Positions 7,687 through 47,297 of a stretch of 55,355 bases of DNA are shown here, piece after piece. Under the pieces are notes generated by a model. It saw only the letters and a program-made list of their open reading frames with translations, made no database searches and was not told the origin of the DNA. This DNA comes from Deltaproteobacteria bacterium. Lineage in GTDB: Bacteria > DRYD01. The stretch is taken from the NCBI GenBank assembly GCA_028276365.1, contig JAPYWL010000006.1, forward strand, positions 1 to 55,355, given 5' to 3'. The position numbers and the translations under genes were made by a program. How positions within the stretch are numbered: the stretch's first letter is position 1; each line of letters starts with the position of its first letter.

Positions 7687-8880
7687 TTAAGTAGTGGTTA
7701 CAAATTTTTGAGTTGGGATTTTACCGTTTACTAAGTTTTTCATGAATACTTTGGTCATTGCTAACACTTCACTTTTTAGCATATCTAATTCTTCTTTGGA
7801 TTTAGGATAAAAGCTATTACCGATCTCTAAAGTATAGTTAAATCTACCTTCTACATGATGGTAATCTTCGCTACTGCCAGTAGTAGGGTACATAGAAACT
7901 GATTGTTCTACATAATATTTATTATTAACAGCTTTGGCCATTTCTTGAGCTACTTCTTTATAGATTGTATCCCATTGAGTAGGTTCTGTGGTATGTCCCC
8001 AAGGATATAAAATTGCATTTGAATAGCTGTGGATATCAATAACGGTATCAATGTGTTTAGAATTAACTAATTTAGTAATAGCTTTAATTTCTGCTTCGCT
8101 ATTACCATAAGGACCTCTATAAGTATCTGAATTAACGCTATCACTTGCTCCATAATCATCCCAGGTACTATCTGGCTTATCGTTTGGTTGTCTATATAAT
8201 GTTGGATCTTTTGGAGTAAAATAGTTTCTATTTAAATCTACTCCTATTCCATTATCAAATTTAGTTTTATTTTTTCTCCACCATCTATCTTGCTTTAAGG
8301 AATATTCGTAACCATCGGGATTAACAACAGGTAAAATGTATATATCTAAGTTATCAAGATATTTATTTAGTTCTGGATCATTAGATTCTAATAATTTTTC
8401 AGCTATATTAAGAGCAGCTTCACCTGTAGCCCATTCCCTTGCATGATGTAATCCTGTTATTAATATACTTTTTTTCTTTCCTTCTTCTTCATTTACATTT
8501 TTTGATATCCTTATAACTACAATATCTCTTCCTTCAAAAGTTTTACCTAAATACTCTAATTTAACTTTATCGGGGTATTTTTTTTCTAATTCTATCATTT
8601 TAGAGATAATTTGATTATAATCTCTAATAAAAGTTGGGGCTTTTATATCTATATCTTGTAAGTAATCTTTAAAGTCATTTATTATATTATCCTTATTTAT
8701 AATTTCAAATCCATCTCGGGTTTGTTTAATTTTTAAGTCATCATTTTTTATTAGAAAATCTGTTATTTCTTGATCATCTAGAATATGATTATTATTTTTA
8801 TCTATTTTTTTACTATAGTCTATATGTTTTAAAGAAACTGGAACTAATTGGTTATTAACTTTTAGATAGTATTTATCCAT
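7687..8880 (-). CDS. M14 zinc carboxypeptidase (carboxypeptidase T-like) with N-terminal extension
   Basis: HHAREW, PVVNPDGY, WRKN, GVDLNRNY, DIHSYS, YTLEIG; no hydrophobic signal peptide. Confidence 0.92.
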   Translation of the reverse strand: MDKYYLKVNNQLVPVSLKHIDYSKKIDKNNNHILDDQEITDFLIKNDDLKIKQTRDGFEIINKDNIINDFKDYLQDIDIKAPTFIRDYNQIISKMIELEKKYPDKVKLEYLGKTFEGRDIVVIRISKNVNEEEGKKKSILITGLHHAREWATGEAALNIAEKLLESNDPELNKYLDNLDIYILPVVNPDGYEYSLKQDRWWRKNKTKFDNGIGVDLNRNYFTPKDPTLYRQPNDKPDSTWDDYGASDSVNSDTYRGPYGNSEAEIKAITKLVNSKHIDTVIDIHSYSNAILYPWGHTTEPTQWDTIYKEVAQEMAKAVNNKYYVEQSVSMYPTTGSSEDYHHVEGRFNYTLEIGNSFYPKSKEELDMLKSEVLAMTKVFMKNLVNGKIPTQKFVTTT

Positions 8881-8955
8881 TTCTATTACCTCCTTTTATT
8901 TTTTTCTTTACTTTATCGAAATATTAATTTTTAAATAAAAAAATATAAAAAAAAA

Positions 8956-8972
8956 TGTAAAAAAAATGTAAA
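8956..8972. promoter_or_regulatory. Direct-repeat motif TGTAAA-N5-TGTAAA upstream of the M14 peptidase
   Basis: tgtaaa aaaaa tgtaaa; the motif recurs upstream of several genes in the window. Confidence 0.5.
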
Positions 8973-12312: not shown

Positions 12313-12828
12313 CTATAGAACTCCTGGTAATCCAAAACTACCACTAAGTTGAGTAAAATTAAAATTAAAATTAAACTGATTGAATTGATTGTTTTGTTGA
12401 TTTTGTTGTTGTAATAGCATCATTAATAAAATTATCAATAACATTATGATTAATTGGTTATTAATTGAGTTAGGATTATTTTGATAGTATTGATTTCCAA
12501 ATGGTGACATACCTGGGCTCATACCGCCTAATGGATTCATACCGCCCATGGGTAATGAAAATGGAGACACTGGATTTTGTCCGCCTAATGCTCCACCTAA
12601 TATTCCTCCTAATAACCCGCCTAATATTCCACCTAATATTCCTCCTAATATTCCCCCTAGTAAGCCGTTAAGCATATTGTTCATTGGATTTATGTTAGCT
12701 ATATCTCCAAAACCTTGTCCTATACCAAAACCAGTACCTATTCCAAAGCCTCCACCTATACCAAAACCAGTACCTATTCCAAAACCTTGTCCTATAATTC
12801 CTCCAAACCCTCCTAGTTGATTTATCAT
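12313..12828 (-). CDS. Hypothetical Gly-rich, Cys-free glycine-zipper protein (harpin-like composition)
   Basis: SD AAGGAGGTG; about 5 GxGFGI repeats, tandem GGIL glycine zipper, LIIMLLIILLMMLLQQ, Q/N tail. Confidence 0.85.
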   Translation of the reverse strand: MINQLGGFGGIIGQGFGIGTGFGIGGGFGIGTGFGIGQGFGDIANINPMNNMLNGLLGGILGGILGGILGGLLGGILGGALGGQNPVSPFSLPMGGMNPLGGMSPGMSPFGNQYYQNNPNSINNQLIIMLLIILLMMLLQQQNQQNNQFNQFNFNFNFTQLSGSFGLPGVL

Positions 12829-12890
12829 TTTTATTCACCTCCTTTTTATATTTATAAATATAATTTTTTTTGTTTTTGTTTTTATTTTAT

Positions 12891-12929
12891 TTTGTAAAAA
12901 TAATTAAAAAAATGTTAAAATTGTAAAAA
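12891..12929 (-). promoter_or_regulatory. 39-bp upstream element, copy 1
   Basis: Coding strand TTTTTACAATTTTAACATTTTTTTAATTATTTTTACAAA; 35/39 identical to 20286-20324. Confidence 0.65.
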
Positions 12930-13133
12930 TTATGTATTTACTACTTGATTAAATGAATAGAGAAAAAGTTAAAGGCTTATTTATTAGCGATAAATTTAAA
13001 AAATATCTTTACACTAGAGTTTTCTTAAGAGTTTTTCTATATCTTAAGATTATTGTAATTGTGTGATTTTAATAAAAAATACTAATTAGTGTTTTGTTTT
13101 AGAGTATAATAGTTCTTATCTACTTTACTTTCC

Positions 13134-13387
13134 TTATGATTGTTTTTTAACTACTTTTAGTGATAAAGAAACTATTTTATTGTTTATATAGATTCCTGGG
13201 ATATAAGCTATACCTTCTAGTTTTAACCTAACGTATGCGTCAAGCGGGAGATTATAAATCTCACCATCTTCGGTAATAAATTTTACTGAACACAATCCGG
13301 ATAAAGATTTTCATATTGGGCAGGAATACAACCCTTAATTATTCTATACTCTTGAAATGGTTTATTTATTATCATTTCTATATGCAT
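13134..13387 (-). pseudogene. Possible frameshifted gene remnant
   Basis: MHIEMIINKPFQEYRIIKGCIPAQYENLYPDC, then after a shift at TGTGT SVKFITEDGEIYNLPLDAYVRLKLEGIAYIPGIYINNKIVSLSLKVVKKQS; more GC-rich than its flanks. Confidence 0.35.
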
Positions 13388-13482
13388 TTTTATTTTCTTC
13401 AATTGCTTAATTTATTTTTTAAGGCTTTGGATAGTTTAGTGTAACTCATATTTGGGAAATTATTTTATTACTTAGCTTTTGA

Positions 13483-13749
13483 TTAAGATAAATTTTTTTC
13501 AATTAATGAGGCTAGCTGGATATCTTTATCAGTTATGGAATTAGAGGAATGAGTAAAAAGCTTTATAATGATTTTTTTATAATAGATTTCTAAGTCAGGA
13601 TGATGATTAAGTTTTTCAGCTAAAAACGCAATCAAGTTAAATACTAAAACTACCTCTTTAAAATTATTTAAATTTATTTCCCTATAGAGTTTGTTATCTA
13701 TAATTTTCCATTGATTATTTTCATTTAAAAATTTTTCTAAACTACTCAT
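13483..13749 (-). CDS. phhB: Pterin-4-alpha-carbinolamine dehydratase
   Basis: AEKLNHHPDL, LFTHSSNSITDKDIQLA. Confidence 0.92.
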   Translation of the reverse strand: MSSLEKFLNENNQWKIIDNKLYREINLNNFKEVVLVFNLIAFLAEKLNHHPDLEIYYKKIIIKLFTHSSNSITDKDIQLASLIEKNLS

Positions 13750-13781
13750 TTTATACCTCCTTTATATATTTACCTCTTTTT

Positions 13782-14918
13782 TTATATATTAAAGATTTCA
13801 TTAATAGTATTGGCAACGTATTCAACATCATTTAATGAAATATAATGATACATAGGCAAGCTTAAAACTTTAGTAGCTAAATCTTCTGAATTGGTTAATG
13901 GATAATATACTTTGTAATTGTTTTTATTTAAATAAACAGGTAATTTATGTAAAGGATAAGGATAGTATATATTTGTTTCTATTCCTTTATTTTCTAGTTC
14001 TTTTTTTAGGTTATCTCTGCTAATAGGAGAATTATTTTTTATTAAAATAGTATATTGGTGATAAACATGATGAAAATTATTATTTTCTGGCTTGGGTGTA
14101 ATTATGTAGGGATTTTTAGAAAGTATTCCATTATATAAATTAGCTGCTTTAATTCTATGATTATTAAATTTTTCAATATATTTTAATTTAACTTTAAGGA
14201 TAGCTGCTTGGATTTCGTCCATCCTTGAATTATATCCAAATTCCTCATGATAATACTTTTTAATGCTACCATGTACTTTTAACATTTTACACTTTTGAGC
14301 TAATTCTTTGTTATTGGTTATAATAAATCCTGCATCTCCGTAAGCTCCTAAATTCTTGGTAGGAAAGCAAGAAAAAGCACCCAAATCTCCAAAGGTGCCA
14401 ACCAATTTATTATTGTATTTAGCACCAAAGGCTTGTGCTACATCTTCTACTACTTTTAAATTATATCTCTTAGCTATTTCCATAACTTTTTCCATATTAA
14501 CAGGTAATCCAAATAAATGAACTGGTATTATAGCTTTTGTTTTTTCAGTAATAGATTTTTCTATTAAATTAACATTTATATTAAAATTTTCATCTATATC
14601 AACAAAAACGGGTATAGCACCTATGTTGTTAATAACTTCAGCAGTAGCAAAAAAAGTAAATGGGGTGGTTATAACTTCATCTCCCTCTTTTATACCTAAG
14701 GATTTTAAAGAAATCAATAAAGCGTCAGTACCTGAATTAACAGTTATAGCATGCTTTACATTAAAGTAATTAGCTAAATTTTCTTCCAATTCTTGGACAT
14801 TTTTTCCCATTATAAATGTTCCTGATTTTAGTACTTTTTTAATTTCTTCTAAAATTTCTTCCCCGATATCTTCAAATTCTGATTTCAAATCGAATAACTT
14901 TATTTTTTGTATTTTCAT
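13782..14918 (-). CDS. DegT/DnrJ/EryC1/StrS family PLP-dependent sugar aminotransferase
   Basis: NSGTDAL, EDVAQAFGA, FSCFPTKNLGAYGDAG, GYNSRMDEIQAA. Confidence 0.95.
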   Translation of the reverse strand: MKIQKIKLFDLKSEFEDIGEEILEEIKKVLKSGTFIMGKNVQELEENLANYFNVKHAITVNSGTDALLISLKSLGIKEGDEVITTPFTFFATAEVINNIGAIPVFVDIDENFNINVNLIEKSITEKTKAIIPVHLFGLPVNMEKVMEIAKRYNLKVVEDVAQAFGAKYNNKLVGTFGDLGAFSCFPTKNLGAYGDAGFIITNNKELAQKCKMLKVHGSIKKYYHEEFGYNSRMDEIQAAILKVKLKYIEKFNNHRIKAANLYNGILSKNPYIITPKPENNNFHHVYHQYTILIKNNSPISRDNLKKELENKGIETNIYYPYPLHKLPVYLNKNNYKVYYPLTNSEDLATKVLSLPMYHYISLNDVEYVANTINEIFNI

Positions 14919-15023
14919 AACAACCCCCTTAAATTTTTTTATTTTTATTACTTAGTAAAACTTAATAATTATATTTTCTTTTCTATATTATAAAATTCTA
15001 TAATATATATTAAATTTCTTTTT

Positions 15024-15040
15024 TTAACACTTTTTTTACA
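15024..15040. promoter_or_regulatory. Direct-repeat motif TTAACA-N5-TTTACA
   Basis: 70 bp upstream of the ATG at 15111; same motif as 8956, 18677, 35583 and 47206. Confidence 0.5.
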
Positions 15041-15110
15041 TAAAAAATTGCTAATTGAGTTTTCAAAAGATAATACAAAATAAAACAAAAAAAAAAGGAG
15101 GGGATTAAAA

Positions 15111-15518
15111 ATGATAAACTTAACAAAAATAACTAAAAAAATATTAATAAATATTTCTATTTTATTAATAATAAACGTGTTAGGAATAATTAATGAGTCA
15201 TATGCTGTAAATGTAAGTCCTGTATATGTAAGTCCAGTATATGTTAATAGAGTGTATGTGAATCCTGTTTATGTAAGTCCGATTTATGTTAATCCTGTAT
15301 ATGTTAATAGAGTATATGTAAGCCCTACTTATGTCCCTCAAGTAATGATAAATAGAACTTATGTAAATACTAATTATGTATCTCCTGTTTATGTAAATCC
15401 TACTTATGTTAATAAAGTCTATGTTAATGAATATAATCCTTATAAAATTCTAAATGCATCTTATAAAAATATAAGAGTATCTTATTTTGATTATAATAAA
15501 CAAGATTTTAGTAATTAA
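15111..15518 (+). CDS. Secreted hypothetical protein with (V/T)YV(N/S)(P/R) pentapeptide repeats
   Basis: Sec-type signal (basic N-region, hydrophobic core, ESYA|V) followed by about 15 pentapeptide repeats; SD AGGAGG. Confidence 0.85.
   Translation: MINLTKITKKILINISILLIINVLGIINESYAVNVSPVYVSPVYVNRVYVNPVYVSPIYVNPVYVNRVYVSPTYVPQVMINRTYVNTNYVSPVYVNPTYVNKVYVNEYNPYKILNASYKNIRVSYFDYNKQDFSN
15207..15431 (+). repeat. Degenerate 15-bp coding tandem repeat
   Basis: TATGT(A/T)A(A/G)T units at 15-bp period, encoding VYVSP/VYVNR/VYVNP/TYVNK. Confidence 0.85.
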
Positions 15519-15552
15519 TTTAAATTATTAAATTATAAACAAAGGAGGAAAA

Positions 15553-16473
15553 ATGAAAATGTTTGAAATCAAAAATATAGGATTAAAAAAGACGGATTTT
15601 TTTAATAAAACTAAAAATATAGAAATTGATAAAAACCAAATTAAAAATAATTTAGAGATATTAAGTAGTGATGAATTTGATGGAAGATTAGTACTAACAG
15701 AGGGTAATGAGAAAGCTCAACAATTTTTAGTTGATAAATTTAAGGAATACAATTTAAAATCTTTTAATAATGATTCATATTTACAGGAGTTTAAATATAA
15801 TAATTCAAAAGTAAATAATGTGATAGGGGTAGTAGAGGGTACTGATCCTGAGTTAAAGAAGGAAGTAGTAGTAATAGGTGCTCATTTTGATCATGTGGGG
15901 GAGGGGTGGTTTTGTTGGAGAGTACCTGGAACTAATGATAAAATATGTAATGGAGCAGATGATAATGCTAGTGGAACTGTATCAATGCTTGAGTTAGCAA
16001 GATTATTTTCAAAATATCCTACTAAAAGGACTATAATTTTTGTAGGATTTAATGCTGAAGAAATGGGACTAATTGGATCTAAAGATTTAGCTAATAAATT
16101 AAAAGAATTATTACCAAATTACAATGTTAAATATATGATAAATATGGATATGGTGGGTAGGAATGGAGACAAGCCATTAACTGCTGCTTATGGTTCTCTA
16201 AATCCTAAAGAAGAAACAATATTAAAACAAACCTTAGAAACTTTAAATTCTAATAAAGATTTTGATATAGTAAATGGTAAAAATTTTAAATATTTTCCAT
16301 ATTCTGATCATTATCCATTTTATAAATCAGGAATTCCTGTTATAATGTTTTCTTCTTTATTACATGAAGATTACCATAAGGTAACAGATGAAGTAAATAA
16401 AATAGATTACAAAGCATTATTTAAGAGAATTGAAGCAGTATATAATGTAGTAAATAAATTAGCTAATTCTTAA
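15553..16473 (+). CDS. M28 family metallo-aminopeptidase
   Basis: IGAHFDH, NGADDNASG, FNAEEMGLIGS, NMDMVGR, SDHYPF, DYHKVTD; no signal peptide. Confidence 0.93.
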   Translation: MKMFEIKNIGLKKTDFFNKTKNIEIDKNQIKNNLEILSSDEFDGRLVLTEGNEKAQQFLVDKFKEYNLKSFNNDSYLQEFKYNNSKVNNVIGVVEGTDPELKKEVVVIGAHFDHVGEGWFCWRVPGTNDKICNGADDNASGTVSMLELARLFSKYPTKRTIIFVGFNAEEMGLIGSKDLANKLKELLPNYNVKYMINMDMVGRNGDKPLTAAYGSLNPKEETILKQTLETLNSNKDFDIVNGKNFKYFPYSDHYPFYKSGIPVIMFSSLLHEDYHKVTDEVNKIDYKALFKRIEAVYNVVNKLANS

Positions 16474-16589
16474 ATTAATTAAAATGAAGGATTCAAAGTA
16501 GGATTTTAATTTTTTTAAATGTAAAATATATGTAGGATGATATAAAAAACTGAAATAAAGTAATGAGGAATAAGTAAGGGGGGAGCAGG

Positions 16590-18665
16590 ATGTCAGATCC
16601 GATTTATTTAAACATCTTATGGCATCAACATCAACCACTTTATAAAGATCCTATAAAAGATACTTACACTGCTCCGTGGGTTAGATTACATTCTACTAAA
16701 GATTATTATGATATGGCTGCTATTTTACTTAATTTCCCTAAGGTAAAATTAACTATAAATTTAACTCCTTCTTTATTAATCCAATTACAAGATTATATTG
16801 ATAAGATGAAGGACTATGCTGATGAAAAAAGTGCTCATTATTTAGATGAAAAATACTTCCCATATGGGAAATTAGATAAAGCCTTAGATCTTCTTTTTAA
16901 ACCTGTAGATAAATGGACTAATGAAGATAAAGAATATGCTAAGAAAAGATTTTTTGATGCACATTATGATTCACAAATAGCTAAATATCCAGCTTATAAA
17001 AAACTATACGATAAAGTTAAAAATAATGAAGAATTAACTAATCAGGATTATCTAAATTTAAAGGTTTGGTTTAATTTAGTTTGGTTTGATTATGATTTTC
17101 TTACTAAGGAAGTGGAATTAATTGGCCAAGATGAAAACAATAACATAATAAAGGATAAAGTAACTAAGATAAAAGATATTTATTTAAAAGGGATTCAAGG
17201 TAAAAACTTTACTGAACAAGATGCAAAAGATATAATATTAGAAACTTATAAAATAATGAAATTTGTGATACCAATTCACAGGTATTTACAAAATAAGGGG
17301 CAAATAGAAATAACTACTACTCCATTTTATCACCCTATTTTACCATTAATAGATGATACTAATGTAGCTAAAGAATCTAATCCAAATGATAAATTACCCA
17401 ATCAATTTAAATACCCTGAAGATGCAGATATTCAAGTAAAATTAGCTGCTGAATATTATAAGAAGCTTTTTGGAAAATATCCAGTGGGTATGTGGCCTGG
17501 TGAAGGAGCAGTTAGTGAAAGTGTTATTAAACATTTTGTTAAAAATGGAGTTAAATGGATTGCTACGGGTAATGAAGTAGTAATGAAATCAGGGCATGCT
17601 TATGATGTTTTAATGCCATATAGAGTAGATGTTGATAGTGAATTCTTAGATAATTTAAATAATGATGCTTTAACAGTTGTTCCTAGATCTTTACATGATA
17701 AGATAGGCTGGGATTATGGATATTATAGGGGTAAGGCAGATGGTATAGATGCTGCTAAGGATTATATTAATTTTGTTAAATCTTTAAAACATGTAGAAGC
17801 TGCTAAAAATGAGCCTATTTTTATTACTAATACTTGTGATGGGGAAAATGTATGGACTTATTATAAAAATGATGGCAAAGATTTCTTATTAGCTTTATAC
17901 GATCTTCTTCAAAAAGATAATCAAATAATTACTATGACACCTAAAGAATTTATAACCCAAATAAAACCAGTAGATAAACAATGGGAATTAGAACCTTTAG
18001 CTACTGGTAGCTGGGTTAATGGAGATTTATCTACCTGGATAGGTGAGGACTCTGAAAATAAAGCTTGGAATATGTTAAATAAATTAAGACAAGAATTTAT
18101 TAAAATTCCATTGCTAAATGAAATAATTCAACTAAAGGAACCTCAAAAAATAGATAGAACAAAATATTACCTTTATAAGGCATGGCATACTTTATTTGCT
18201 GCTGAAGGTTCGGATTGGTTTTGGTGGTATGGAAATGATTGGGATAGTGGTAATGATCAATATTTTGCAAGATTACATAGAGAATTAATGGTTAATGCTC
18301 TAAAATATTTATTAAAAGCTGGATACCAAGTTGAATTCCCTTCTTTAATATTTGAACCATTAGATCAGGATAATTCTTATTTACCTCCTACTATGTGTAT
18401 TTATAATATTCAAGATACCAAATTAAATATAAAAATAATAAATCCACTTAATCAAAAAATAGACTTAAGTAATTTTATTATAAATATAATTGATTTAAAT
18501 GGAAAAATAATATTTACTGAAAAATTATCTAATTTAAAACAAATAGAAAATGGTGATCTTGTATTTGATTTTTCTAATTTAGGTTTAAAGGATTCTGAAT
18601 TAAACATAAATATAGTAAACTCTCAAACCCAAGAAATAGTGGATAAAGATTATATAATTAAATAA
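16590..18665 (+). CDS. Glycoside hydrolase family 57 (amylopullulanase-like)
   Basis: WHQHQP, PWVRLH, TPFYHPILPL, GMWPGEGAVS, DGEN, AEGSDWFWW. Confidence 0.95.
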   Translation: MSDPIYLNILWHQHQPLYKDPIKDTYTAPWVRLHSTKDYYDMAAILLNFPKVKLTINLTPSLLIQLQDYIDKMKDYADEKSAHYLDEKYFPYGKLDKALDLLFKPVDKWTNEDKEYAKKRFFDAHYDSQIAKYPAYKKLYDKVKNNEELTNQDYLNLKVWFNLVWFDYDFLTKEVELIGQDENNNIIKDKVTKIKDIYLKGIQGKNFTEQDAKDIILETYKIMKFVIPIHRYLQNKGQIEITTTPFYHPILPLIDDTNVAKESNPNDKLPNQFKYPEDADIQVKLAAEYYKKLFGKYPVGMWPGEGAVSESVIKHFVKNGVKWIATGNEVVMKSGHAYDVLMPYRVDVDSEFLDNLNNDALTVVPRSLHDKIGWDYGYYRGKADGIDAAKDYINFVKSLKHVEAAKNEPIFITNTCDGENVWTYYKNDGKDFLLALYDLLQKDNQIITMTPKEFITQIKPVDKQWELEPLATGSWVNGDLSTWIGEDSENKAWNMLNKLRQEFIKIPLLNEIIQLKEPQKIDRTKYYLYKAWHTLFAAEGSDWFWWYGNDWDSGNDQYFARLHRELMVNALKYLLKAGYQVEFPSLIFEPLDQDNSYLPPTMCIYNIQDTKLNIKIINPLNQKIDLSNFIINIIDLNGKIIFTEKLSNLKQIENGDLVFDFSNLGLKDSELNINIVNSQTQEIVDKDYIIK

Positions 18666-18676
18666 AAAAATAAAAA

Positions 18677-18693
18677 TGTAAAAAATATGTTAA
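18677..18693 (+). promoter_or_regulatory. Direct-repeat motif TGTAAA-N5-TGTTAA
   Basis: About 90 bp upstream of the ATG at 18785, followed by TATAAT at 18733-18738. Confidence 0.55.
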
Positions 18694-18784
18694 AAAAGCT
18701 AAATTTAGTTTTAATTTTTTAATAATTGATTATATAATTACTAAGAGTACCTTTAGGAAAAATATTAAAAGAGGGGGTGCTATT

Positions 18785-20035
18785 ATGTCATTTGATGTTT
18801 TCTCTAATTTAAATGTAATAAGAAATAATTATGTATCACCTACCAATATTATTTCTACTTCATATAGTAATACCATAAGCTTATCAGTAGATGGATATAT
18901 AAAAGATGATTTAAATGTAGTAGATTATGGTGATTTATATTCAACAGTTAGACCTAATAATATAAATACTTCATACAATCCCGAACCGATTCCGGCGGTT
19001 CCTGAACCTAATGAATCCTACTATTCTCAAATAAACGATTTGAATACCTTAAGTGATCAATTTAAATTATATTTAGATAAATATAATCAATTGGTTGGTG
19101 TATATAATAAAGTAGAAGTTGATAAAAACAAAGTATTAAATAATATAAAAAATATAGAAAATCATAAAGTTCAAATTCAACAAAGGATAGAGCAATTAAA
19201 TAATCAGATAAATCAATTAAATAATCAGGCAACTCAATTGAGTAATCAAGCAAATAACTTGAGAAATCAAGCTAATAATTATGAATTACAGGCAAATAAT
19301 TTGGAACAAAGTGCTAATATGTTAGAGCAGCAAGCACAAGCTTTATTATCTAATCCATTAAGTGCATCTGCGGGAGCTCAATTAATGGCTCAAGCTCAAG
19401 CTTTAAGAGCACAAGCTATGACTCTTAAAAATTTAGCTCAGCAACTTAAAACGCAAGCTCAACAATTGGATCAACAAGCTCAAGAGCTACGTAATAAAGC
19501 TAATGAATTAAGAAATCAAGTTAATCAACTCCAAAATAAACTCCAACAACTAGACGTTAAATTAAACAACTTTAAACAATTACTAAATAATATAAATAAC
19601 TACCAAGAAAAGTTAAAACAAGCTATAATTAAAGTAGTTAAACATTTACAGTTAATATATAAACGTGCTCAAGAATTAATAAATCAAAAGCAGTTTGAAA
19701 ACCAATTAAATTTATTAAATAATATCCTTAACAATTTAAATAATATAAGAGGTTTAGGATTTTATAATGCTAATAATAATAATATAAACCCAATGGCTAT
19801 ATTCTCTTTATTGGGCATGTTTATGAATAATCCATTAATGAATATGTTTTCATTATTAGGGGGACCTAAAATGGGATTTATTAATAATAATTTTAATAAT
19901 CCGAATTTTGTTTTACCTGCTTTAGGAATGTTTAGCAGTTTTATAGCGTTTTCTTCTATGCCTATGCCATCTTTTAATTATCCAGCATTTAGTGTAGGCT
20001 TTGTAGCTTCTTTTAGAAAAGTTAAATCTATATAA
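18785..20035 (+). CDS. Hypothetical Q/N/A-rich coiled-coil hairpin protein with hydrophobic Met/Phe-rich C-terminus
   Basis: Long heptad runs either side of ALLSNPLSASAGAQLMAQA; no Cys; SD GAGGGGGTG. Confidence 0.85.
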   Translation: MSFDVFSNLNVIRNNYVSPTNIISTSYSNTISLSVDGYIKDDLNVVDYGDLYSTVRPNNINTSYNPEPIPAVPEPNESYYSQINDLNTLSDQFKLYLDKYNQLVGVYNKVEVDKNKVLNNIKNIENHKVQIQQRIEQLNNQINQLNNQATQLSNQANNLRNQANNYELQANNLEQSANMLEQQAQALLSNPLSASAGAQLMAQAQALRAQAMTLKNLAQQLKTQAQQLDQQAQELRNKANELRNQVNQLQNKLQQLDVKLNNFKQLLNNINNYQEKLKQAIIKVVKHLQLIYKRAQELINQKQFENQLNLLNNILNNLNNIRGLGFYNANNNNINPMAIFSLLGMFMNNPLMNMFSLLGGPKMGFINNNFNNPNFVLPALGMFSSFIAFSSMPMPSFNYPAFSVGFVASFRKVKSI

Positions 20036-20285
20036 ATTAATACAATTATAATACAATTCCAATATAATTACAATTCTTTAAATAATAGTTTTTTAAATTG
20101 TTTTTACTAAAAATAGTGTTATATTTTTTTTATTTACTATATTTTTTTTTACTTTTTTTTAAATAGTATTAAAAAAAATTTTGATAAAACATTCAATAAA
20201 AAATTTAAAGATAATTAATAAAAAAAATAAAAAAGATGGTAGTTATAGAAAATCTTACTAATAATCTAAATATATAGAAACTATT

Positions 20286-20324
20286 TTTTTACAATTTTAA
20301 CATTTTATTTAGAATTTTTACAAA
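20286..20324 (+). promoter_or_regulatory. 39-bp upstream element, copy 2
   Basis: TTTTTACAATTTTAACATTTTATTTAGAATTTTTACAAA; 35/39 identical to the reverse complement of 12891-12929. Confidence 0.65.
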
Positions 20325-20396
20325 TTAAATAAAAAAATAATTAAAAAAATTGTAATAAATAATTAAAGAATTTAGGATAAAGGGGGTGAATAGAAA

Positions 20397-21392
20397 ATGA
20401 TGAATCAATTAAGTAGTTTTGGAGGATATATAGGTAGTAGCTTTGGGTATTATTATAACCAGTTAAGTATAGAACAAAAACAAGAAGTTAATAATATTTT
20501 AGGAAGTTTAGGAGTATCAATAAGTGAATTAGAATTTTACTTTGGATTTATATCTATAAGTTTAGGGAACGTATCATTTTTTGCTTTTGTATTTTTACTA
20601 AAGAAGAACCCAAATTTAATTAACAATCTAAGGGCTCAAGCTGCTGCTATGGGTTTTGGAGCTTTCGGAGCTGCTGGGTCTTTTAGTGTAGGAAATCCTA
20701 CAAGTACTCCATTATATAGTTCCCCTACTACATCATCAAGTGGAAAATCAAGTTCCTCTTCTCCAAAACAAATTGGAGACGCATTTTTAACTGCTTTTTC
20801 TTCTAAAGATATAGAAAATCTTAAAAATGGTGGTAGCTTAGATTTAAAAAATGGAGTTTTAAGTAATTTAAATGATTTAGCTAAATATGATAAAAATGGA
20901 GATGGAAAGATTAGTGGTGACGAATTAAAAGACCTACAAGTATCAATTGATTATAACAAAGATGGAAAAATAGATAAAAATGAATTAAAATCAGCTGCAG
21001 ATTCCAATATAAAAGAAATAGATCTAAAATCTGGAAAAGCTATTACAAACGATGGAAAAAATTTTGATCTAAAAGCGGATCCTAATGTCAATATAGGTGG
21101 AGAAAATAAATCAGCACTAATAATAGATTCTAATAAAGACGGACAATCTACTAAAGATCCTGATAATAGAGTACAACCTGGTGATTTTAGTCAATTTGGT
21201 TCTAAAACTGAGGATAAATCTTCTGACAATACATCATCTGCTAATGGATCTTCAAGTTCTAGTGGATCTTCAGAGGCAAGTGTTTCCTCAGGTTCTAGTA
21301 GTTCTTCAAGTTCTAGTGAGGCTTCTGGTTCTAGTGGATCATCTACCAGTGGATCATCTAGTGGTAGTAGCAGTTCTAGTGGTAGTAGTTAG
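20397..21392 (+). CDS. Hypothetical protein with EF-hand-like DxNxDG Ca-binding motifs and Ser/Gly-rich tail
   Basis: DKNGDGKISGDEL, DYNKDGKIDKNEL, DSNKDG; hydrophobic segment at about aa 47-68; SSGSS tail; no Cys. Confidence 0.85.
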   Translation: MMNQLSSFGGYIGSSFGYYYNQLSIEQKQEVNNILGSLGVSISELEFYFGFISISLGNVSFFAFVFLLKKNPNLINNLRAQAAAMGFGAFGAAGSFSVGNPTSTPLYSSPTTSSSGKSSSSSPKQIGDAFLTAFSSKDIENLKNGGSLDLKNGVLSNLNDLAKYDKNGDGKISGDELKDLQVSIDYNKDGKIDKNELKSAADSNIKEIDLKSGKAITNDGKNFDLKADPNVNIGGENKSALIIDSNKDGQSTKDPDNRVQPGDFSQFGSKTEDKSSDNTSSANGSSSSSGSSEASVSSGSSSSSSSSEASGSSGSSTSGSSSGSSSSSGSS

Positions 21393-21451
21393 CTCAGGTG
21401 AAGGGAAATAATAAAAATACATTAATATCATAATAAAAAATAAAATAAAAT

Positions 21452-22774
21452 ATGAATATAAAAGAAGCTTATAATCCTACTATAAATTTTATAGATTTAT
21501 TATCCTACAATGCAGTACAAATAATAAATGAAATATATAATTTACAAATAGATTCACCAACTACTATACATTTTTATTATCAAAATGTAATTAAAAAAAA
21601 TATAGTAAATGAATTTGATGTTATTATAGATATTTTGCAAATAAATAATAAAGATAATAATCAAAAAATAGATGATATTCTAATTTTAATAGAGGATGTA
21701 AAAGTAAAACTAAATTTATTAAAACAATTAATTTTAAATAAATTAGAAAATAAAGAAGAAAAAAATAATTCAGAAAATAAAGATGATCTTAAGGAATTAA
21801 AATTATCTTTTTTTTTAATAAATCAATTAGAAGCAGTTTTAAATCAAATAAATGTAGAAAATGAAAATCTTTATATAATAGATGTAGAAAATAAATTAAT
21901 AAGTTATGAAAATAAGGAATTTTTAAATTTTTTAAAGTTATTAAAAAATTCTTTTGATAATGCAAAAGTTTCTATCTGGAATTTATATAACCAAAAATTA
22001 ATAGATACCCCTTATTTTTTAAAAAATGAACAAAATTTTCTAAGAGAAATAGAGTTAAATGATTTTATAATTTTTTACTTATCAGATTTTATAAATTATG
22101 AATTGAATATAGATTGGGAGTTAATTTCATATTTACTATTTTATCAGGAATTACAAATAAAAGTAATCTTAAAATATCTTGGAGAATTTTCTAAAGAAAA
22201 TCCATTAGAAAGCTTATTCAATATACTTTATAATAAAGATAATTTAATTCAAGATTATTTAAATTATCTAAAAAATTTTGTTGATTTAAAAAATTTTCAA
22301 AAGCAAATATTAGAAGATTTTATCTTAAAAATAGAAAAAGAAGGTATAAATTGTATAATATGTAAAGAAAACAAAATAGATTTTGTATATTTTAATTGTC
22401 CAAAATGTGATATATATTATATAGATTTAATTACAACTGCTGATTCAATAAAATTACTTTTTTATTTATTAATTTTAAATGAATTTGATCTTTTATACGA
22501 AAATGTTATTAATTTTAGAGATTATCTTTATTCACTAATAAATAAAAATACAAAAATTTATAATAAAATTGGATATATTCAAATAGATTTACTTTATATT
22601 AATCAAATGATAGGCAAAATAAGAGAAATAGAAAGTATAATAAGTATTTTAGATGAAATAATAAGGATTTTAGAATCAAAAAAAGAATTAGAAATATTAG
22701 ATATATCAAACATCTCTAAAAATTTATATGAAATAAATAATAAATTAGAATTAATTTTATTTAGTATGATTTAG
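21452..22774 (+). CDS. Hypothetical helical protein with CxxC-CxxC putative Zn site
   Basis: 440-codon ORF; CIIC...CPKC. Confidence 0.75.
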   Translation: MNIKEAYNPTINFIDLLSYNAVQIINEIYNLQIDSPTTIHFYYQNVIKKNIVNEFDVIIDILQINNKDNNQKIDDILILIEDVKVKLNLLKQLILNKLENKEEKNNSENKDDLKELKLSFFLINQLEAVLNQINVENENLYIIDVENKLISYENKEFLNFLKLLKNSFDNAKVSIWNLYNQKLIDTPYFLKNEQNFLREIELNDFIIFYLSDFINYELNIDWELISYLLFYQELQIKVILKYLGEFSKENPLESLFNILYNKDNLIQDYLNYLKNFVDLKNFQKQILEDFILKIEKEGINCIICKENKIDFVYFNCPKCDIYYIDLITTADSIKLLFYLLILNEFDLLYENVINFRDYLYSLINKNTKIYNKIGYIQIDLLYINQMIGKIREIESIISILDEIIRILESKKELEILDISNISKNLYEINNKLELILFSMI

Positions 22775-22864
22775 AAATTAATAGAAAATATTTTTCAATG
22801 AAATAATTTTTAGAAGCTAAAGGAATTTTATTAACAAAGGTATAATAATAATAATGAAGCTAAA

Positions 22865-23239
22865 GGGGGTGTAAGGGGTTCGACGGTAAGAGGTAAGGAG
22901 ATAAGCTGCAGGCCGGGTCTTAGCTCCGTTAAAGCTAAGAGTAAAATAAACGCCGACAGAGAATTAGCTTTAGCTGCTTAATAATAAGCAGGCTTGCTAA
23001 GGTAGGTGCTTGCTACTACCTTAGTGGGTAAAAAATCTAGCAAGCTGCGCTTATAAGTCGCACCGCTTATAAGCTAAGCTAATCGGTGCTATGTGTATCT
23101 GTAGGTTCCTTGCTTATCCTACTGATACACTAAATCATAAAAGCAAGGGTTTGGTAGATTAGCCATAAATCTACCTAAGCCTGTAGATGCTATCTTCTTA
23201 GCTTACCGGACGTGGGTTCAACTCCCACCACCTCCACCA
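22865..23239 (+). ncRNA. ssrA: tmRNA; tag peptide ADRELALAA (22952-22981)
   Basis: 5' GGGGGTG...GGTTCGAC, 3' GTGGGTTCAACTCCCAC-CACCTCC-ACCA; acceptor stem with G3.U wobble; internal ORF ending LAA-stop. Confidence 0.96.
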
Positions 23240-23429
23240 CATTAAAAATATTCCCTAAATTAAAGATATAATCTAACTATTTTAATATCAAAACATTAAT
23301 ACTTATATCCTTGGGAATAATTTGTAATTCCTAAGATATTAAAATTAAAGTATCTATTAGTGTTTTGCTCAAAAATTTTCGGTAATTTTCAATAATTATT
23401 AATTCAAAAAATGAATAAAAAAATAAAAT

Positions 23430-23446
23430 TGTAAAAAATTAGTAAA
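23430..23446 (+). promoter_or_regulatory. Direct-repeat motif TGTAAA-N5-AGTAAA
   Basis: One-mismatch copy, about 82 bp upstream of the ATG at 23529. Confidence 0.45.
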
Positions 23447-23528
23447 AAAAATATGAAAAATTATTTATTTTTTTAAAAAAGTGTATATATAAATAAAGGA
23501 AAAGATAATTTTTAGGGGGTGAAATTTT

Positions 23529-26027
23529 ATGGCTATAAATCCAATAAATAATAGTTTTGATCTTAGTTCTCCTATATATAGTAACTTTTCTTTTGGTAAT
23601 AATCAATATATTGGAATTGATCATGATATTCAGGGACAAACGGAAGCAGGTGATGTTAATCAAAATGATATCCAACAATTACAAAACTCTATTAATCAGG
23701 ATAAACCCTTAGAAAATGCTGCCTTTGATTCTAATTTTAAAGTAGAAAAAGTTCCCCAAGAGCTAACTAAAAACTTTACCCAAACTTTAACAAAATTTGA
23801 TGGTGGGATTTCTCAATTAACTAGTAAAATAACAAGCTTACAAAATGAATTAAAATCATTATTATCAAGAAAATTCAAACCAGGGGGATTAATTAACCAA
23901 ATAAAACAACAAATAAAAATGTATACCCAAGGTTTAAAAAATCTTAAAAATCTAAAATCAAAATTCCTAAATCAAAGAAGTAAAACAGAATCACAAACAA
24001 AACAATTAGTTAACCAATTTACATCAAATAACCACGCTAAGGATGCTTTGTATAACAAAGGTGCTAATTTAATTTCACAATTCCCTAATTTAAATGGTGA
24101 TTTTAAATTTTTATTAACTCCTTTTAGGTTATCAGTTAATGAAAATGGATTTAATTCAATGTTTGCTAATATATTTGGAGGCATAGGTGTAGGTATCTTA
24201 GGGGGAATGACTTTATTTAATTCATCTATTATTAATAATAATATTATGCAAATTCATGATGTAGATACTTTAGTAGGAATGTTATCCTCTAATCAAGAAA
24301 TTATGGGAAATTTATTCAATAGCTATCAAAATTTGAGTGCAATGGAAGTAATGGAAACTCAAAAATTGATGCTACTTCAAAATGATTTAATGAGAATAAA
24401 TCAGGGGCAAAGTTTTGCAAAAATGAGAAAAGCTTTTCACAAGATGAAGGAAACTATGTTTAAGGGGTTTGCTAAAGCTTTAGATATGGCTTCTAAGGTT
24501 TTGGATAAAATGTCAACTGTTATGGAAAATGCTGCTCAAGGATTAGAAGCTGCTGCTAATGCTGCTCAAGCTATTCCTTTGGTAGGTCCTGCAATTGCTG
24601 CTGCATTAAGGATGGCTGCTAAAGCTATCAGAATGATTGCTAAAATGTTTAAAAAAGCCGCTAAATTCCTTGAACAAAAATCTAAACTCATGGAAAATAA
24701 AGCTAAACATCTTAATAAAATGCAACAACTAATGGATAAAAAGATATCATTTCTTGATAAACTTAAGCAAAAAGCATTAGAACAAATTAGGAATATCACT
24801 GAAAGATTAAATCAAATAAGAGAAAGAAAAAATTACGTTGCTCAGATGATACAACAAAAATTAATTGAGCGTCAAATGATAATTCAAAGATTAATGATGC
24901 TAGGTGAAAATCCTAGTGGAATAGGAATGCCAGGAATAGGAATGCCAGGGTTAGGAATGCCAGGGCTAGGAATGACAGGGTTAGGTATGCCAGGGTTAGG
25001 AATGCCAGGAATGGGAATGCCAGGGTTAGGTATGCCGGGAATAGGAATGCCAGGAATGGGTATGCCAGGGTTAGGAATGCCAGGAATGGGTATGCCAGGG
25101 TTAGGAATGCCAGGAATGGGTATGCCAGGGTTAGGAATGACAGGGTTAGGTATGCCAGGAATAGGAATGCCAGGAATGGGTATGCCAGGGTTAGGAATGC
25201 CAGGAATGGGTATGCCAGGGTTAGGAATGCCAGGAATGGGTATGCCAGGGTTAGGAATGCCAGGAATGGGTATGCCACCTATTGGTATGCCTATGATGAT
25301 TAATTCTATAGGTAATGTAATGTCAATGATGGGTATGGGATTAATGGGAGTTAATCCTTTAATGGGAATGTCTTTTATGTTAATGGGTTCTATGATGAAT
25401 TTAATGGGTAATAATATGCTAATGCAAAGGGGATTAATGAATCCGTTAAGATCCAATATGTTAGGAGGCTTAATGGGAGGTATAATAGGGGGAGCTTTAG
25501 GAGGTGCAATAGCTGGTTCTGTTGGGTCTAGTTTTACTCCAAGATACGTTAAAAGACAAGCTGAACAACAATTAGTTCAATTAGCAAACTTTATATTAAA
25601 TAATCAGGGTAATCCACAGGCACAGATGTACAAAATGATACTAAAAAATATTTATATTCAAATAGCACAAAGGATAGATATAAGCCCAGAAGTTAGACAA
25701 TTAGTATCACAAGCAGTAGGTGAAAACCTAAGTAACATATCTCCTGCAGCAGCTGGAGCAATGCAAGGAGCAATGATAGGTGGTATTTTAGGAGGTATAT
25801 TGGGGATGAATAATGCTATGGTTAATCCTATGATGAACCCTATGATGAATCCTATGATGAATCCTATTATGATGGGAGGAATACTTGGTGGTGTGCTTGG
25901 AGGCTTCTTAGGAAATAATATAGCGGCAAACAATAATATGGCTTTATTAGGTAATTTCAATAATTTAAGTATAGGAATTGTTTCTATTAATAGTTTTAGT
26001 TTTCAAAACAATGCTATAGCAGTTTAG
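23529..26027 (+). CDS. Large hypothetical Cys-free protein: coiled-coil hairpin, G(L/M/I)GMP repeats, glycine zippers
   Basis: 832 aa; AQAIPLVGPAIAAAL hairpin tip, 25 pentapeptides, GGIL-type zippers, NPMM repeats; SD AGGGGGTG. Confidence 0.88.
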   Translation: MAINPINNSFDLSSPIYSNFSFGNNQYIGIDHDIQGQTEAGDVNQNDIQQLQNSINQDKPLENAAFDSNFKVEKVPQELTKNFTQTLTKFDGGISQLTSKITSLQNELKSLLSRKFKPGGLINQIKQQIKMYTQGLKNLKNLKSKFLNQRSKTESQTKQLVNQFTSNNHAKDALYNKGANLISQFPNLNGDFKFLLTPFRLSVNENGFNSMFANIFGGIGVGILGGMTLFNSSIINNNIMQIHDVDTLVGMLSSNQEIMGNLFNSYQNLSAMEVMETQKLMLLQNDLMRINQGQSFAKMRKAFHKMKETMFKGFAKALDMASKVLDKMSTVMENAAQGLEAAANAAQAIPLVGPAIAAALRMAAKAIRMIAKMFKKAAKFLEQKSKLMENKAKHLNKMQQLMDKKISFLDKLKQKALEQIRNITERLNQIRERKNYVAQMIQQKLIERQMIIQRLMMLGENPSGIGMPGIGMPGLGMPGLGMTGLGMPGLGMPGMGMPGLGMPGIGMPGMGMPGLGMPGMGMPGLGMPGMGMPGLGMTGLGMPGIGMPGMGMPGLGMPGMGMPGLGMPGMGMPGLGMPGMGMPPIGMPMMINSIGNVMSMMGMGLMGVNPLMGMSFMLMGSMMNLMGNNMLMQRGLMNPLRSNMLGGLMGGIIGGALGGAIAGSVGSSFTPRYVKRQAEQQLVQLANFILNNQGNPQAQMYKMILKNIYIQIAQRIDISPEVRQLVSQAVGENLSNISPAAAGAMQGAMIGGILGGILGMNNAMVNPMMNPMMNPMMNPIMMGGILGGVLGGFLGNNIAANNNMALLGNFNNLSIGIVSINSFSFQNNAIAV
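24918..25292 (+). repeat. 15-bp coding tandem repeat (25 units) with a 120-bp higher-order duplication
   Basis: GGGTTAGGAATGCCA / GGAATGGGTATGCCA units; units 8-15 recur almost exactly as units 16-23. Confidence 0.95.
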
Positions 26028-26072
26028 TTAATATATATAAAAAATAATTAATTTAAAAGGAGGCGTATTAAA

Positions 26073-26762
26073 ATTAGTGAGCTACAAGATATTTTAAAAC
26101 AAATAGATCAAAAAAAAGATAATTTTGATCTAAAAGATTTAAAAAATTTCTTAGTAAATATAAAAACTATAATAGATGAGAACATAAAAGAATTAAACGA
26201 TTCATTAAAAGAATTAGAAACATATAATGAAGAAATAGATGAGGAAGATAAATTAATTTTGGGTATTAAAAATAGTTTGGAAAATATAAACATAAGAATA
26301 GAAGAATATATAAAAGTACTCAATGAGATAATAGATAATAAGCGTGCTTATAATGAGGAGGAATTAGAAAATCTAAATAAAGAAATAGAAGAAGATTTAA
26401 AAGCCTTAGAAGAATTGATAAACATTAGTCAGGAAAATGGAGATAATTTTAACCAGGAAATAGAAGATTTTTACCCCATAGAAGAAATAGATGAAATAAT
26501 AGAAAATGAAGACTTAAATGAAAAGCAAAAAGAAAAACTTTTAAAAGATATTCAAGAAAGATTAAATAGTTTTAACCAAAATGTTGATTATTCTGTAGAA
26601 GATATATTAGAAAGTAATGATCTAATAGATGAAAACGATTTAAAAAAAGCGAAGATATTAAATAACTTACTAAAATCCTTAGATAAGGCTATAGAAGAAA
26701 ATAATGAAAACAAAGTTAATGAAATTTTAGAAAAGATAAATGATTTTATAAAAGAATATTAA
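26073..26762 (+). CDS. Acidic coiled-coil hypothetical protein, probable ATT start
   Basis: Frame open from 26052; SD AGGAGG at 26058-26063 lies 9 nt before ATT-AGT-GAG-CTA (xSELQDILKQIDQKK); the track start (TTG 26259) is internal. Confidence 0.7.
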   Translation: MSELQDILKQIDQKKDNFDLKDLKNFLVNIKTIIDENIKELNDSLKELETYNEEIDEEDKLILGIKNSLENINIRIEEYIKVLNEIIDNKRAYNEEELENLNKEIEEDLKALEELINISQENGDNFNQEIEDFYPIEEIDEIIENEDLNEKQKEKLLKDIQERLNSFNQNVDYSVEDILESNDLIDENDLKKAKILNNLLKSLDKAIEENNENKVNEILEKINDFIKEY

Positions 26763-26920
26763 AATTTGAAATTTAAGTAAAAATAATCTATTCTTTTTAT
26801 AAAAGGAATTTTCTTTTCTTTGGTTAATATTCTAAATGTAGATATTAATTAGATAAATAAAAAATATTTAAGGTTGTAAATAAATAATTTAGTATAAATA
26901 ATTTATGAGGGGGAAGTGCT

Positions 26921-27178
26921 ATGCAATTTGATACATCAATTAAGAAAAACGAAAATTTCCTAAAAAAGAATAAAAATAATAATAAACAAAAAGTCAAGAA
27001 TTTTCAAGATAATTTCTTAAATAATTTGAGAAATTCTCAAAAAGAAACAAATATATTACTGATTAATGGTACAGAAATAACAGGTAAATTATTATCTTTT
27101 GATCAATACGTGGTTATATTGGAAAAGAATAATCAAAAAATGATGATTTATAAACATGCAATTGCTAAAATAAATTAA
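26921..27178 (+). CDS. hfq: RNA chaperone Hfq
   Basis: NFQDNFLNNLR, LINGTEITGKLLSFDQYVVIL, MIYKHAI. Confidence 0.93.
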   Translation: MQFDTSIKKNENFLKKNKNNNKQKVKNFQDNFLNNLRNSQKETNILLINGTEITGKLLSFDQYVVILEKNNQKMMIYKHAIAKIN

Positions 27179-27270
27179 GTGTAATAAATGGTAAATGGTA
27201 GTTGAAAATTGATAATTGATAATTAATAATTAATAATTCATAAAGGGGAGAGGTAAAAAAAAGTATAAGG

Positions 27271-28680
27271 ATGTATATTCCTACAAAGCAAGAGATTTTG
27301 TTAAATAAAATAAATGATTTAGCTAATACTAATTTTAAAAGTATTGATGAAATATTTAAGGAAATAACAGGAAAAGATAGTTTTTATAAACCAAACCTAA
27401 ATAATCCCTTATCTCAAATAGAAGTAATAGAATATTTTGAAAATTTATTTAAAGATATACCTATAAATAAGTATTTTGTAGGATTAGGAGCTTATGATCA
27501 TTTTATACCTCCAATAGTAGATGATTTAATTAGGAGTGAATTCCTAACTTCATATACTCCATATCAAGCAGAAATATCTCAAGGTACTTTACAAGCAATA
27601 TGGGAATTTCAATCCCTTATTTCAGATTTATTTAATATGGATGTATGTAATTCTTCGCATTATGATGGAGCAACTGCCTTAAGTGAAAGCTTATTAATGG
27701 CTTATAGAATCTATTCAAATAAGAAAGCTTATAAATACATAGTTCCTAATTCTATAAATCCTCATTACTTTAATGTTTTAAAAACTTATTCTTATCCTTT
27801 TGATTTTATGCCTATATTTTTAGATTTTGATGAAACTGGAAAAATAGATATAAATAAATTACAAGAATTATCTAAAGATGAGGATATATTTGCTGTTATA
27901 ATTCAGTCTCCTAACTTATTTGGTATAATAGAAAATGTAAATAGTATTAAAAATATAATAAAGGACAAAGTATTAATTTTATCGATTTTGGAACCATTAG
28001 CTTATTTTATTTTGCCTAAGATAGAAAATGTGGATATAGTTAGTGCTAACTTACAATCTTTTGGGATTCCGCTATCTTTTGGGGGACCATATCTTGGGGT
28101 TATTGCTACTAAAAAGGAATATATTAGACAATTACCAGGCAGAATTATAGGTAAAACTGTAGATAAAGATAATAATATAGCTTTTACTATGATACTACAA
28201 ACAAGGGAACAACATATTAAAAGAGAAAAGGCAAATAGTAATATTTGTACTAATCAAGGACTTATGGCTATTAGAAATGCTATATATTTGCTTTCTTTAG
28301 GAAAAAATAACCTAATCAAAATAGCTAAATTAAACAACTTACTTATTAATTATTTAGCTCAAGAACTAATAAGTCTTAACAAAAATATAAAATTGATTTT
28401 TGAATCTCCAGTATTTAATGAAATGTTATTTTATATACCAAATTATAATGAAATTTATTCTAAATTACTTAATAAAAATATTGTTTTTGGTACAAATCTA
28501 AGAAAATTATACTTTGATAATTTACATTATCAGAATCTAATTAACAATCTAAAAGTAGTTTTTAGTCAAACAAAAGAAATAAAAGATGAAAATATATTTG
28601 ATAATCTTAGCATTATAGCTACAACAGAAAAAATTTCTATAAATGATATCTATAATATTATTAAAGTTATTAATAACTAA
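27271..28680 (+). CDS. gcvPA: Glycine dehydrogenase (decarboxylating) subunit 1
   Basis: EFLTSYTPYQAEISQGTLQAIWEFQ, FGGPYLG, LQTREQHIKREKANSNICTNQ. Confidence 0.95.
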   Translation: MYIPTKQEILLNKINDLANTNFKSIDEIFKEITGKDSFYKPNLNNPLSQIEVIEYFENLFKDIPINKYFVGLGAYDHFIPPIVDDLIRSEFLTSYTPYQAEISQGTLQAIWEFQSLISDLFNMDVCNSSHYDGATALSESLLMAYRIYSNKKAYKYIVPNSINPHYFNVLKTYSYPFDFMPIFLDFDETGKIDINKLQELSKDEDIFAVIIQSPNLFGIIENVNSIKNIIKDKVLILSILEPLAYFILPKIENVDIVSANLQSFGIPLSFGGPYLGVIATKKEYIRQLPGRIIGKTVDKDNNIAFTMILQTREQHIKREKANSNICTNQGLMAIRNAIYLLSLGKNNLIKIAKLNNLLINYLAQELISLNKNIKLIFESPVFNEMLFYIPNYNEIYSKLLNKNIVFGTNLRKLYFDNLHYQNLINNLKVVFSQTKEIKDENIFDNLSIIATTEKISINDIYNIIKVINN

Positions 28681-47119: not shown

Positions 47120-47205
47120 TTTGTTACACCTCCTTAAAACTTTTTTTCTTTTTTCAATATTATTATATTCATTTTTTTTGAAACTAAATAGTAAATTAGA
47201 TTTTT

Positions 47206-47222
47206 TTTACAATTTTTTAACA
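47206..47222. promoter_or_regulatory. Direct-repeat motif (minus strand TGTTAA-N5-TGTAAA)
   Basis: 86 bp upstream of the ATG at 47119; same orientation and similar distance as at 18785 and 23529. Confidence 0.55.
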
Positions 47223-47297
47223 AACTTTGTTTTTTATAATTTTACTAAAAGATTTTTAAATGGACTTCTATTAATAAATTTTAATTGGTATTTTGGA

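Follow-up and report, generated by a model that had tools for sequence, protein, structure and literature searches.

Probable transplant of a promoter and N-terminal codons between two genes of a hot-spring deltaproteobacterium

We analyzed a 55,355-nt stretch of a Deltaproteobacteria bacterium genome (GenBank assembly GCA_028276365.1, contig JAPYWL010000006.1; "the window" below) and found that two genes with unrelated bodies, here called gene A and gene B, have homologous 5′ ends. The sequence comparisons make it highly probable that a module of about 150 bp, comprising the promoter region, the ribosome-binding site (RBS) and the first codons, was transplanted from A to B. A first-pass annotation of the same sequence had proposed a portable promoter plus export-signal module, and the promoter-plus-N-terminus part of the proposal is supported by phylogenetic incongruence, a leftover of the old 5′ end of B and the restriction of the chimera to one clade. 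The fuller explanation, in which the transplanted module belongs to a common regulon and possibly serves protein export, we regard as likely when taken as a whole.

The source genome (G000) is 1.59 Mb in size, 24% GC and 87% complete, and the window is its entire contig C88. The metagenome runs containing the stretch come mostly from hot springs. Genes were called with a simple in-house caller (1347 genes, the start positions being possibly wrong in some). G001, G002, G003 and L031 denote relatives, and order-level searches took in eight genomes that are 73–90% complete. The features discussed are collected in Table 1.

Table 1. Positions in the window of genes A and B and of the features assigned to their 5′ ends
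Feature	Position	Strand	Remarks
Gene A (putative donor)	12313-12828	(-)	171 aa
Putative donor 5′ module of A	12791-12929	(-)	array, spacer, RBS, first ~13 codons
39-bp array of A	12891-12929	(-)	TTWACA at -99, -90, -70; degenerate site -79
Remnant of ancestral B upstream region	20040-20240	(+)	alignment with G001
Probable stub of ancestral B codons ~9-12	20241-20256	(+)	duplicated at right junction near 20439-20449
Putatively A-derived 5′ module before B	20286-20441	(+)	array, spacer, RBS, codons 1 to ~13-16
39-bp array of B	20286-20324	(+)	TTWACA at -109, -100, -80; one-mismatch site -89
Gene B (putative recipient)	20397-21392	(+)	331 aa, EF-hands

Similarity of the Two 5′ Ends

The starting point was a pair of 39-bp blocks that are identical at 35 of 39 positions in an ungapped alignment; one stops 62 nt before the ATG of gene A and the other 72 nt before that of gene B. 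Both observations were reproduced exactly, and no inverted repeat in the window ranks above this pair. When the genome was searched with the 39-mers, each block was the best match of the other, the next best having seven (A) and nine (B) mismatches. For 564 upstream 39-mers, the best match elsewhere was most often 28/39, and 26 reached at least 35; the 21 that were listed above A/B come from paralogy, segment duplication or a dispersed repeat.

The homology exceeds the block. Positions 12791–12929(–) match 20286–20434(+) at 77% (E 1e-22), and the gapped similarity extends over the spacer, the RBS and 38 coding bases. Segments spanning –120 to +45 of A and B scored 125, well above a background of 30.6 ± 8.2 with a maximum of 62 (616 upstream regions). 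Of the 190,653 segment pairs, 44 scored at least 125, nearly all of them owing to paralogy, segment duplication or a single dispersed repeat. At the protein level, A and B align over residues 1–17 only (11/17, E 6e-4), which agrees with the earlier description of similar N-termini that then diverge and means that the two are not full-length paralogues. The likeness of the RBS regions pointed out before is real but weak evidence, as the core GGRGGTGA is found in 39 of the 1347 genes (a longer form in three). The pattern M-x-NQL-x-x-FGG occurs in A and B alone among the called genes and is therefore not a genome-wide signal motif.

Probable Replacement of the 5′ End of Gene B

The orthologues of B in G001, G002, G003 and L031 have a different, MLINN-type start that gives way to the shared body around residue 17. 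In pairwise comparisons, the B module of G000 scored 163 with the A module of G001, 125 with its own A and 98 with A of G002. Its scores with B of G001 (56) and B of G002 (34) were lower, while those two modules reach 95 when compared to one another. In a tree of seven modules, it grouped with the three A modules with support of 100/100, and approximately unbiased (AU) tests rejected its grouping with B of G001 (p 2e-4) and with B of L031 (p 2e-4 and less). A BLAST search with the B module found the A locus of G001 (E 1e-35), while the B locus of G001 was not among the matches listed. Gene B of G002 has a stop at codon 22.

The upstream region of the ancestral B was left behind. The remnant aligns with the B upstream region of G001 (155/194 identical; score 224, including the end of the upstream gene), with the alignment stopping 32 nt before the G001 start, and the old RBS and first codons are lost after it. 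The 16 nt that follow match ancestral B codons 9–14 at 12 of 16 positions; in a control, 13 of 2841 windows reached 12 matches and none 14. Two of the four mismatched positions carry the ancestral base in all three other runs. We consider this segment a probable stub of old B codons and its evidence as supporting, not decisive. The 14 B homologues comprise five with an A-like start, five with the ancestral start and four that are incomplete. In a tree of the bodies (12 rows; the four incomplete proteins were excluded), the A-like starts fell on one side, consistent with one change (support 75/79). The chimeric clade includes proteins about 66–72% identical, indicating that the chimera has been kept for long. 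Upstream of 20035, L031 is nearer to G000 than G001 is (91–92%), but over B it is farther away (81%), which makes the locus a mosaic in one of them.

Other samples contain the chimera too. In run X5 a single contig covers the entire stretch, with 31 differences, and in run X4 a contig reaches from 20066 to 20512; run X1 is possibly the source and was not counted. Among assemblies, the chimera is also present in L030 and in P0015, in the latter on a 1.88-Mb contig. Joints were seen in run X2, in which 20243–20308 is skipped, and in X5. This recurrence argues against an assembly chimera as the cause of the inverted repeat. The repeat might otherwise be the scar of an inversion: compared with G001 and G002, a block of about 15 kb (roughly 13.5–28.7 kb) has the opposite orientation, with one end just upstream of the promoter of A. 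B lies 7–8 kb inside that block, however, and no A-upstream DNA is found at the other end; we rejected the scar as a candidate and consider either origin, scar or assembly artifact, very improbable. In G001 and G002, gene A follows gcvP, and the inverted block there corresponds to window positions of about 13000–28700.

An alternative with more in its favor, though still improbable, is that A and B are ancient paralogues at their 5′ ends that have undergone repeated gene conversion, in which case the direction and the single event would both be wrong. In all three g1 genomes the promoters of A and B resemble each other in architecture, and B of G001 scores 81 with A of G002. A second pair of genes, 46820–47119(–) of the window and G000:C27:6675–7409 (L074), likewise has unrelated bodies and about 20 common N-terminal codons, and its common start is present in G000 and G003 but not in G001 or G002. 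After gene conversion, however, the old promoter would be gone instead of standing upstream, and the bodies of A and B have no homology. The promoters of the second pair are alike across the family; as a promoter transplant this pair was rejected, its promoter being orthologous (165 vs. 127).

Convergence alone would require that two members of one regulon independently evolved the array, a strong RBS and a low-complexity start in a 24% GC genome. The TTWACA half-site of the array (below) does occur genome-wide, three exact half-sites account for 18 of the 35 matches and T runs for most of the remainder, and ancestral B promoters already match the block at 27 of 39 positions. It leaves unexplained why only the B of this clade matches A through spacer, RBS and codons, and it accounts for neither the remnant upstream region nor the stub. 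Convergence is thus strongly disfavored, and we give it a small probability.

Several points weigh against a transplant from A to B. An AU test holding all four B modules together was not rejected (p 0.167), although that constraint still allows B of G000 beside the A group and the test is weak either way. The stub is short, the query stretch was picked after the match had been seen, and G002 does not match it (9/16). The support for the chimeric clade is no higher than 75/79, and promoters of one regulon reach scores of 106–109 with no swap shown (the second pair, in relatives). The B module is nearer to the A of G001 than to its own A (the own-A grouping was borderline rejected, p 0.042).

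We nevertheless favor the transplant. In a single event, the 5′ module of A would have been inserted into B near codon 10, with an in-frame junction in a short stretch of similar sequence there, by template switch or illegitimate recombination. Selection on the half-sites may be why 39 bp stand out of the homology of about 150 bp. The annotation had also brought up the fusion of such modules to new bodies. The ancestral B start is already uncharged and polar, with TTWACA half-sites upstream in G002, G003 and L031; since it is of the same type, like replaced like and recruitment of a new body is not shown. The swap may have been tolerable in that A and B were, even before it, members of a single regulon whose proteins start disordered and uncharged and would be exported by the apparatus discussed below.

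B would now be transcribed from the new promoter. Contigs from RNA libraries of four studies, carrying a related allele, begin at 20385–20398 and leave 20255–20305 without cover, a weak hint of such transcription. On the other side, RNA libraries can contain DNA, and these contigs derive from relatives.

Half-Site Array and Regulator

The 39-bp block contains TTWACA half-sites at offsets 0, 9, 20 and 29 (spacing 9-11-9). Three of the four are exact, and three of the four A/B mismatches fall inside the degenerate third site; by its sequence, the block appears to be largely a shared regulator-type array. The one-helical-turn offset between the A and B blocks that the annotation had mentioned does not hold up among orthologues, in which the last exact half-site lies 54–99 nt from the ATG with many intermediate values. 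The outer half-sites are 29–30 nt apart in five of nine A orthologues, and the array is thus conserved while its distance to the start is not.

Half-sites are organized genome-wide. In noncoding DNA, TTWACA-N5-TTWACA accounts for 47 pairs at period 11 vs. 0–9 at other periods, and this box precedes 48 of 681 genes vs. a mean of 0.9 in shuffled sequence. It occurs in two orientation classes, peaking at about 60–110 and at 100–110 nt before starts. Within the window, boxes were observed at 8940–8972, 14990–15025, 18670–18690 and 47205–47225. The box is the reverse complement of the WalR/YycF consensus TGTWAH-N5-TGTWAH, as given in 10.1101/2022.04.01.486798, and upstream enrichment tested in the TGTWAA form was found. 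The sole OmpR-family regulator found in the genome is encoded at G000:C100:1864–2565, adjoining a kinase, and each of the eight genomes of the order gave one strong match to an OmpR-family regulator. We consider it somewhat probable that the 39-bp array is an operator to which this regulator is predicted to bind, and the array would then be read by the genome's single YycF/WalR-like protein.

There are also points against this assignment. The best family of the regulator is YycF at 273.5 bits, below the cut-off of 340, and the kinase scored 104 vs. a WalK cut-off of 725; the two are therefore an OmpR-family regulator and its neighbor that are WalR-like only, not WalR/WalK orthologues. The period-11 boxes of A and B are inexact (two and one mismatches, respectively), and the 9-nt half-site spacing is not enriched genome-wide. 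A sigma-70 promoter within the block was tried and rejected: TTTACA-16-TAGAAT is present in B and absent from A, with four hits vs. 5.0 in shuffles. No sigma-28-type promoter was found with the single pattern used. A SigH-family sigma factor (over the NCBIfam cut-off) is encoded at window 35703–36569, and a similar second one at G000:C52:23156–24034.

Products of Genes A and B

Gene A is present in eight and a B-like sequence in nine of nine family relatives, five of which have B orthologues with the N-terminal domain. Gene A had no family match, and NCBIfam gave none for either gene. The A protein consists of a Gly-rich start, a Gly zipper, a hydrophobic run (residues ~126–137) and a Gln/Asn run. 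A homologue search limited to lengths 94–300 gave no match at E 0.001, and the Atlas gave no usable match. Its layout is similar to that of the leaders found on two other proteins of the genome, one SLT and one NlpC/P60; a profile of A matched the SLT leader (E 2e-7) but also reversed proteins (3e-6 to 2e-4), and the kinship is thus partly compositional.

In the B protein, residues 1–15, the swapped part, are predicted to be disordered (predicted local distance difference test score < 50 in the model), residues 18–84 form a helical domain and the C terminus is a Ser/Gly tail. Residues 42–70, with a hydrophobic run at ~49–68, are packed into the helical domain of the model. Residues ~125–270 form an EF-hand domain that in fold comparison resembles the FrpC self-processing module (E 4e-4), with a poor alignment (root-mean-square deviation 6–14 Å). 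A precomputed Pfam match to that module (PF26745) is present in 12 of 14 B homologues, and a PDB sequence search with B gave weak EF-hand matches and nothing stronger. The Asp-Pro bonds of B are at 228 and 254 only, none of them at the start of the module, and self-cleavage is therefore not expected. The paralogues of B have hydrophobic, Sec-like starts, while B itself has none. Three paralogues with Sec-like starts (G000:C124:95368–96366, C20:13290–14228 and C83:26654–27676) have near-identical promoters. In the first, an Asp-Pro site precedes an EF-hand-like motif, which makes this protein a candidate for a complete module of the self-processing type.

Possible Export by a Flagellar Type III Apparatus

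The genome encodes a flagellar-type FlhA, FliP, FliG, FliF, FliI, rod proteins and FliK, along with genes that we take from their sequence to be FlhB, FlgB, FliE, FliQ, FliM/N and FliJ. FliI was over the cut-off in all eight genomes of the order. None of the eight yielded flagellin, full-length FlgK or MotA/ExbB, with controls detected, although the incompleteness of the genomes means that these absences of filament and motor genes are not proven. The box (at most one mismatch) precedes five of eight flagellar operon leaders vs. 94 of 673 other genes (p 0.002).

Genes with at least two sense half-sites tend to encode polar starts rich in Asn, Ser, Thr, Gln and Gly (28 vs. 448 genes, p 1e-6), and a hydrophobic start is found in four of these 28 vs. 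123 of the 448 others. Proteins with SLT, NlpC/P60, PLD, subtilase, nuclease and clostripain domains are among the half-site genes that have no hydrophobic start, and nine hydrolases combine at least one half-site with that property; the examples were picked by eye from the half-site lists (25 scanned). Polar N-terminal extensions and upstream half-sites were observed in the SLT, NlpC/P60, PLD, subtilase and EEP nuclease proteins, two clostripains and an M14 peptidase (L072:456–1466, L073:351–1349, L073:2878–4116, L076, L077, L086 and L089; window 7687–8880), the first two of which carry an A-like leader.

Nonflagellar proteins bearing a fused N-terminal signal can exit via the flagellar system (PMC7911332), and reduced flagellar basal bodies are proposed as secretion systems (PMC3459982). 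The common start of A and B may, on sequence grounds, be an export tag, an idea to which we give slightly less than an even chance. What speaks for it is indirect, namely an export apparatus without flagellin, an N-terminus that is disordered and uncharged, and a regulon that includes hydrolases lacking Sec signals. That proteins of the A and B type are exported by a flagellin-less flagellar type III apparatus is, to a like degree, tentative. Against it weigh the rod proteins of this genome, whose starts are not as strongly uncharged as those of A and B, the restriction of the N-terminal motif to these two genes, and the polar, uncharged start that B had before the swap.

Nearly as plausible is a transplant that was real but purely regulatory or neutral, with the first 13–16 codons carried along without an export role and with A and B cytoplasmic or membrane-bound; this alternative shares the transplant with our explanation and differs in the export step alone. 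It would fit the hydrophobic runs of both proteins, an apparatus that could serve rod subunits only and the unproven gene absences. Against it stand the packing of the B run into a modeled domain, the similarity of the B fold to a module of an extracellular RTX protein, the Sec-like starts that the paralogues have and B does not, and the nine half-site hydrolases. Extending the export reading to the order, a filament- and motor-less basal body would be the main non-Sec route for dozens of wall hydrolases, proteases, lipases and Gly-zipper proteins, which we find doubtful at present. It is similarly speculative that one WalR-like regulator would control this arsenal and that the arsenal would evolve by shuffling of promoter and export-tag modules. 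If true, it would suggest a predatory or antagonistic way of life, with the A-to-B swap as a case with a readable scar.

Neighboring and Related Loci

Other loci showed patterns of their own. The 99-aa protein of the second pair (window 46820–47119) is kept in nine of nine family relatives, duplicated in G002 and predicted to be a single long helix; a needle or filament subunit was considered and rejected, with no Pfam or PDB match and a model of one long helix. Close to B, window 18785–20035 and 23529–26027 encode coiled-coil, low-complexity proteins with no family match and mutual similarity (E 7e-8). One of them has 15-nt repeats, and a secreted or translocon-like role is a guess. Four lipoprotein-like genes (G000:C104:439, C48:15791–16315, C124:33180–33527 and C66:14507–14809) have near-identical upstream regions and weakly related bodies and are candidates for further 5′-module shuffling.

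Comparison with Known Systems

The regulon resembles that of WalR/YycF, as described in the source cited above, in the reverse-complement box, in the best match of the regulator and in the presence of half-sites at SLT and NlpC/P60 genes. It differs in a regulator and kinase that fall below the cut-offs, in a box that stands before flagellar export and rod genes and in the 9-11-9 spacing at A and B. The resemblance of B to the self-processing module of FrpC, an extracellular RTX protein (PDB 6SJX/6SJW; PMC7078468), is one of fold, and B has no Asp-Pro site of that kind. Buchnera basal bodies and the needle-less type III systems of Myxococcales, as treated in PMC3459982, have kept the gate, the ATPase and ring or rod parts, with filament and motor not found, as here. 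Unlike them, the apparatus reported here is present in eight of eight searched genomes of a thermophilic order, and its substrates are candidates derived from sequence patterns.

Terminal reassortment has usually been inferred from chimeric effectors of pathogens. For type III effectors the reference is Stavrinides, Ma and Guttman (2006), as recounted in PMC5675462 and PMC7406222. The present case is alike in that a 5′ module and first codons appear fused in frame to an unrelated body: the module is common to unrelated bodies, recipient orthologues do not have it and a type III apparatus is present. No published account of this transplant was found in the main texts of the open-access literature, although supplements could list these genes. 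In an uncultured lineage that is free-living, the sequences still show the donor, the recipient, the ancestral alleles of the recipient and the old 5′ end that stayed behind. The chimeric and ancestral B proteins thereby offer two natural N-termini, from before and after the swap, on the same body, on which export could be tested. The differences from terminal reassortment are a hot-spring setting with no known host cell, an apparatus of the flagellar type and a recipient start that was already of the same kind; a secretion-signal role of the moved start and the gain of a new substrate would be conjectural in the present case.

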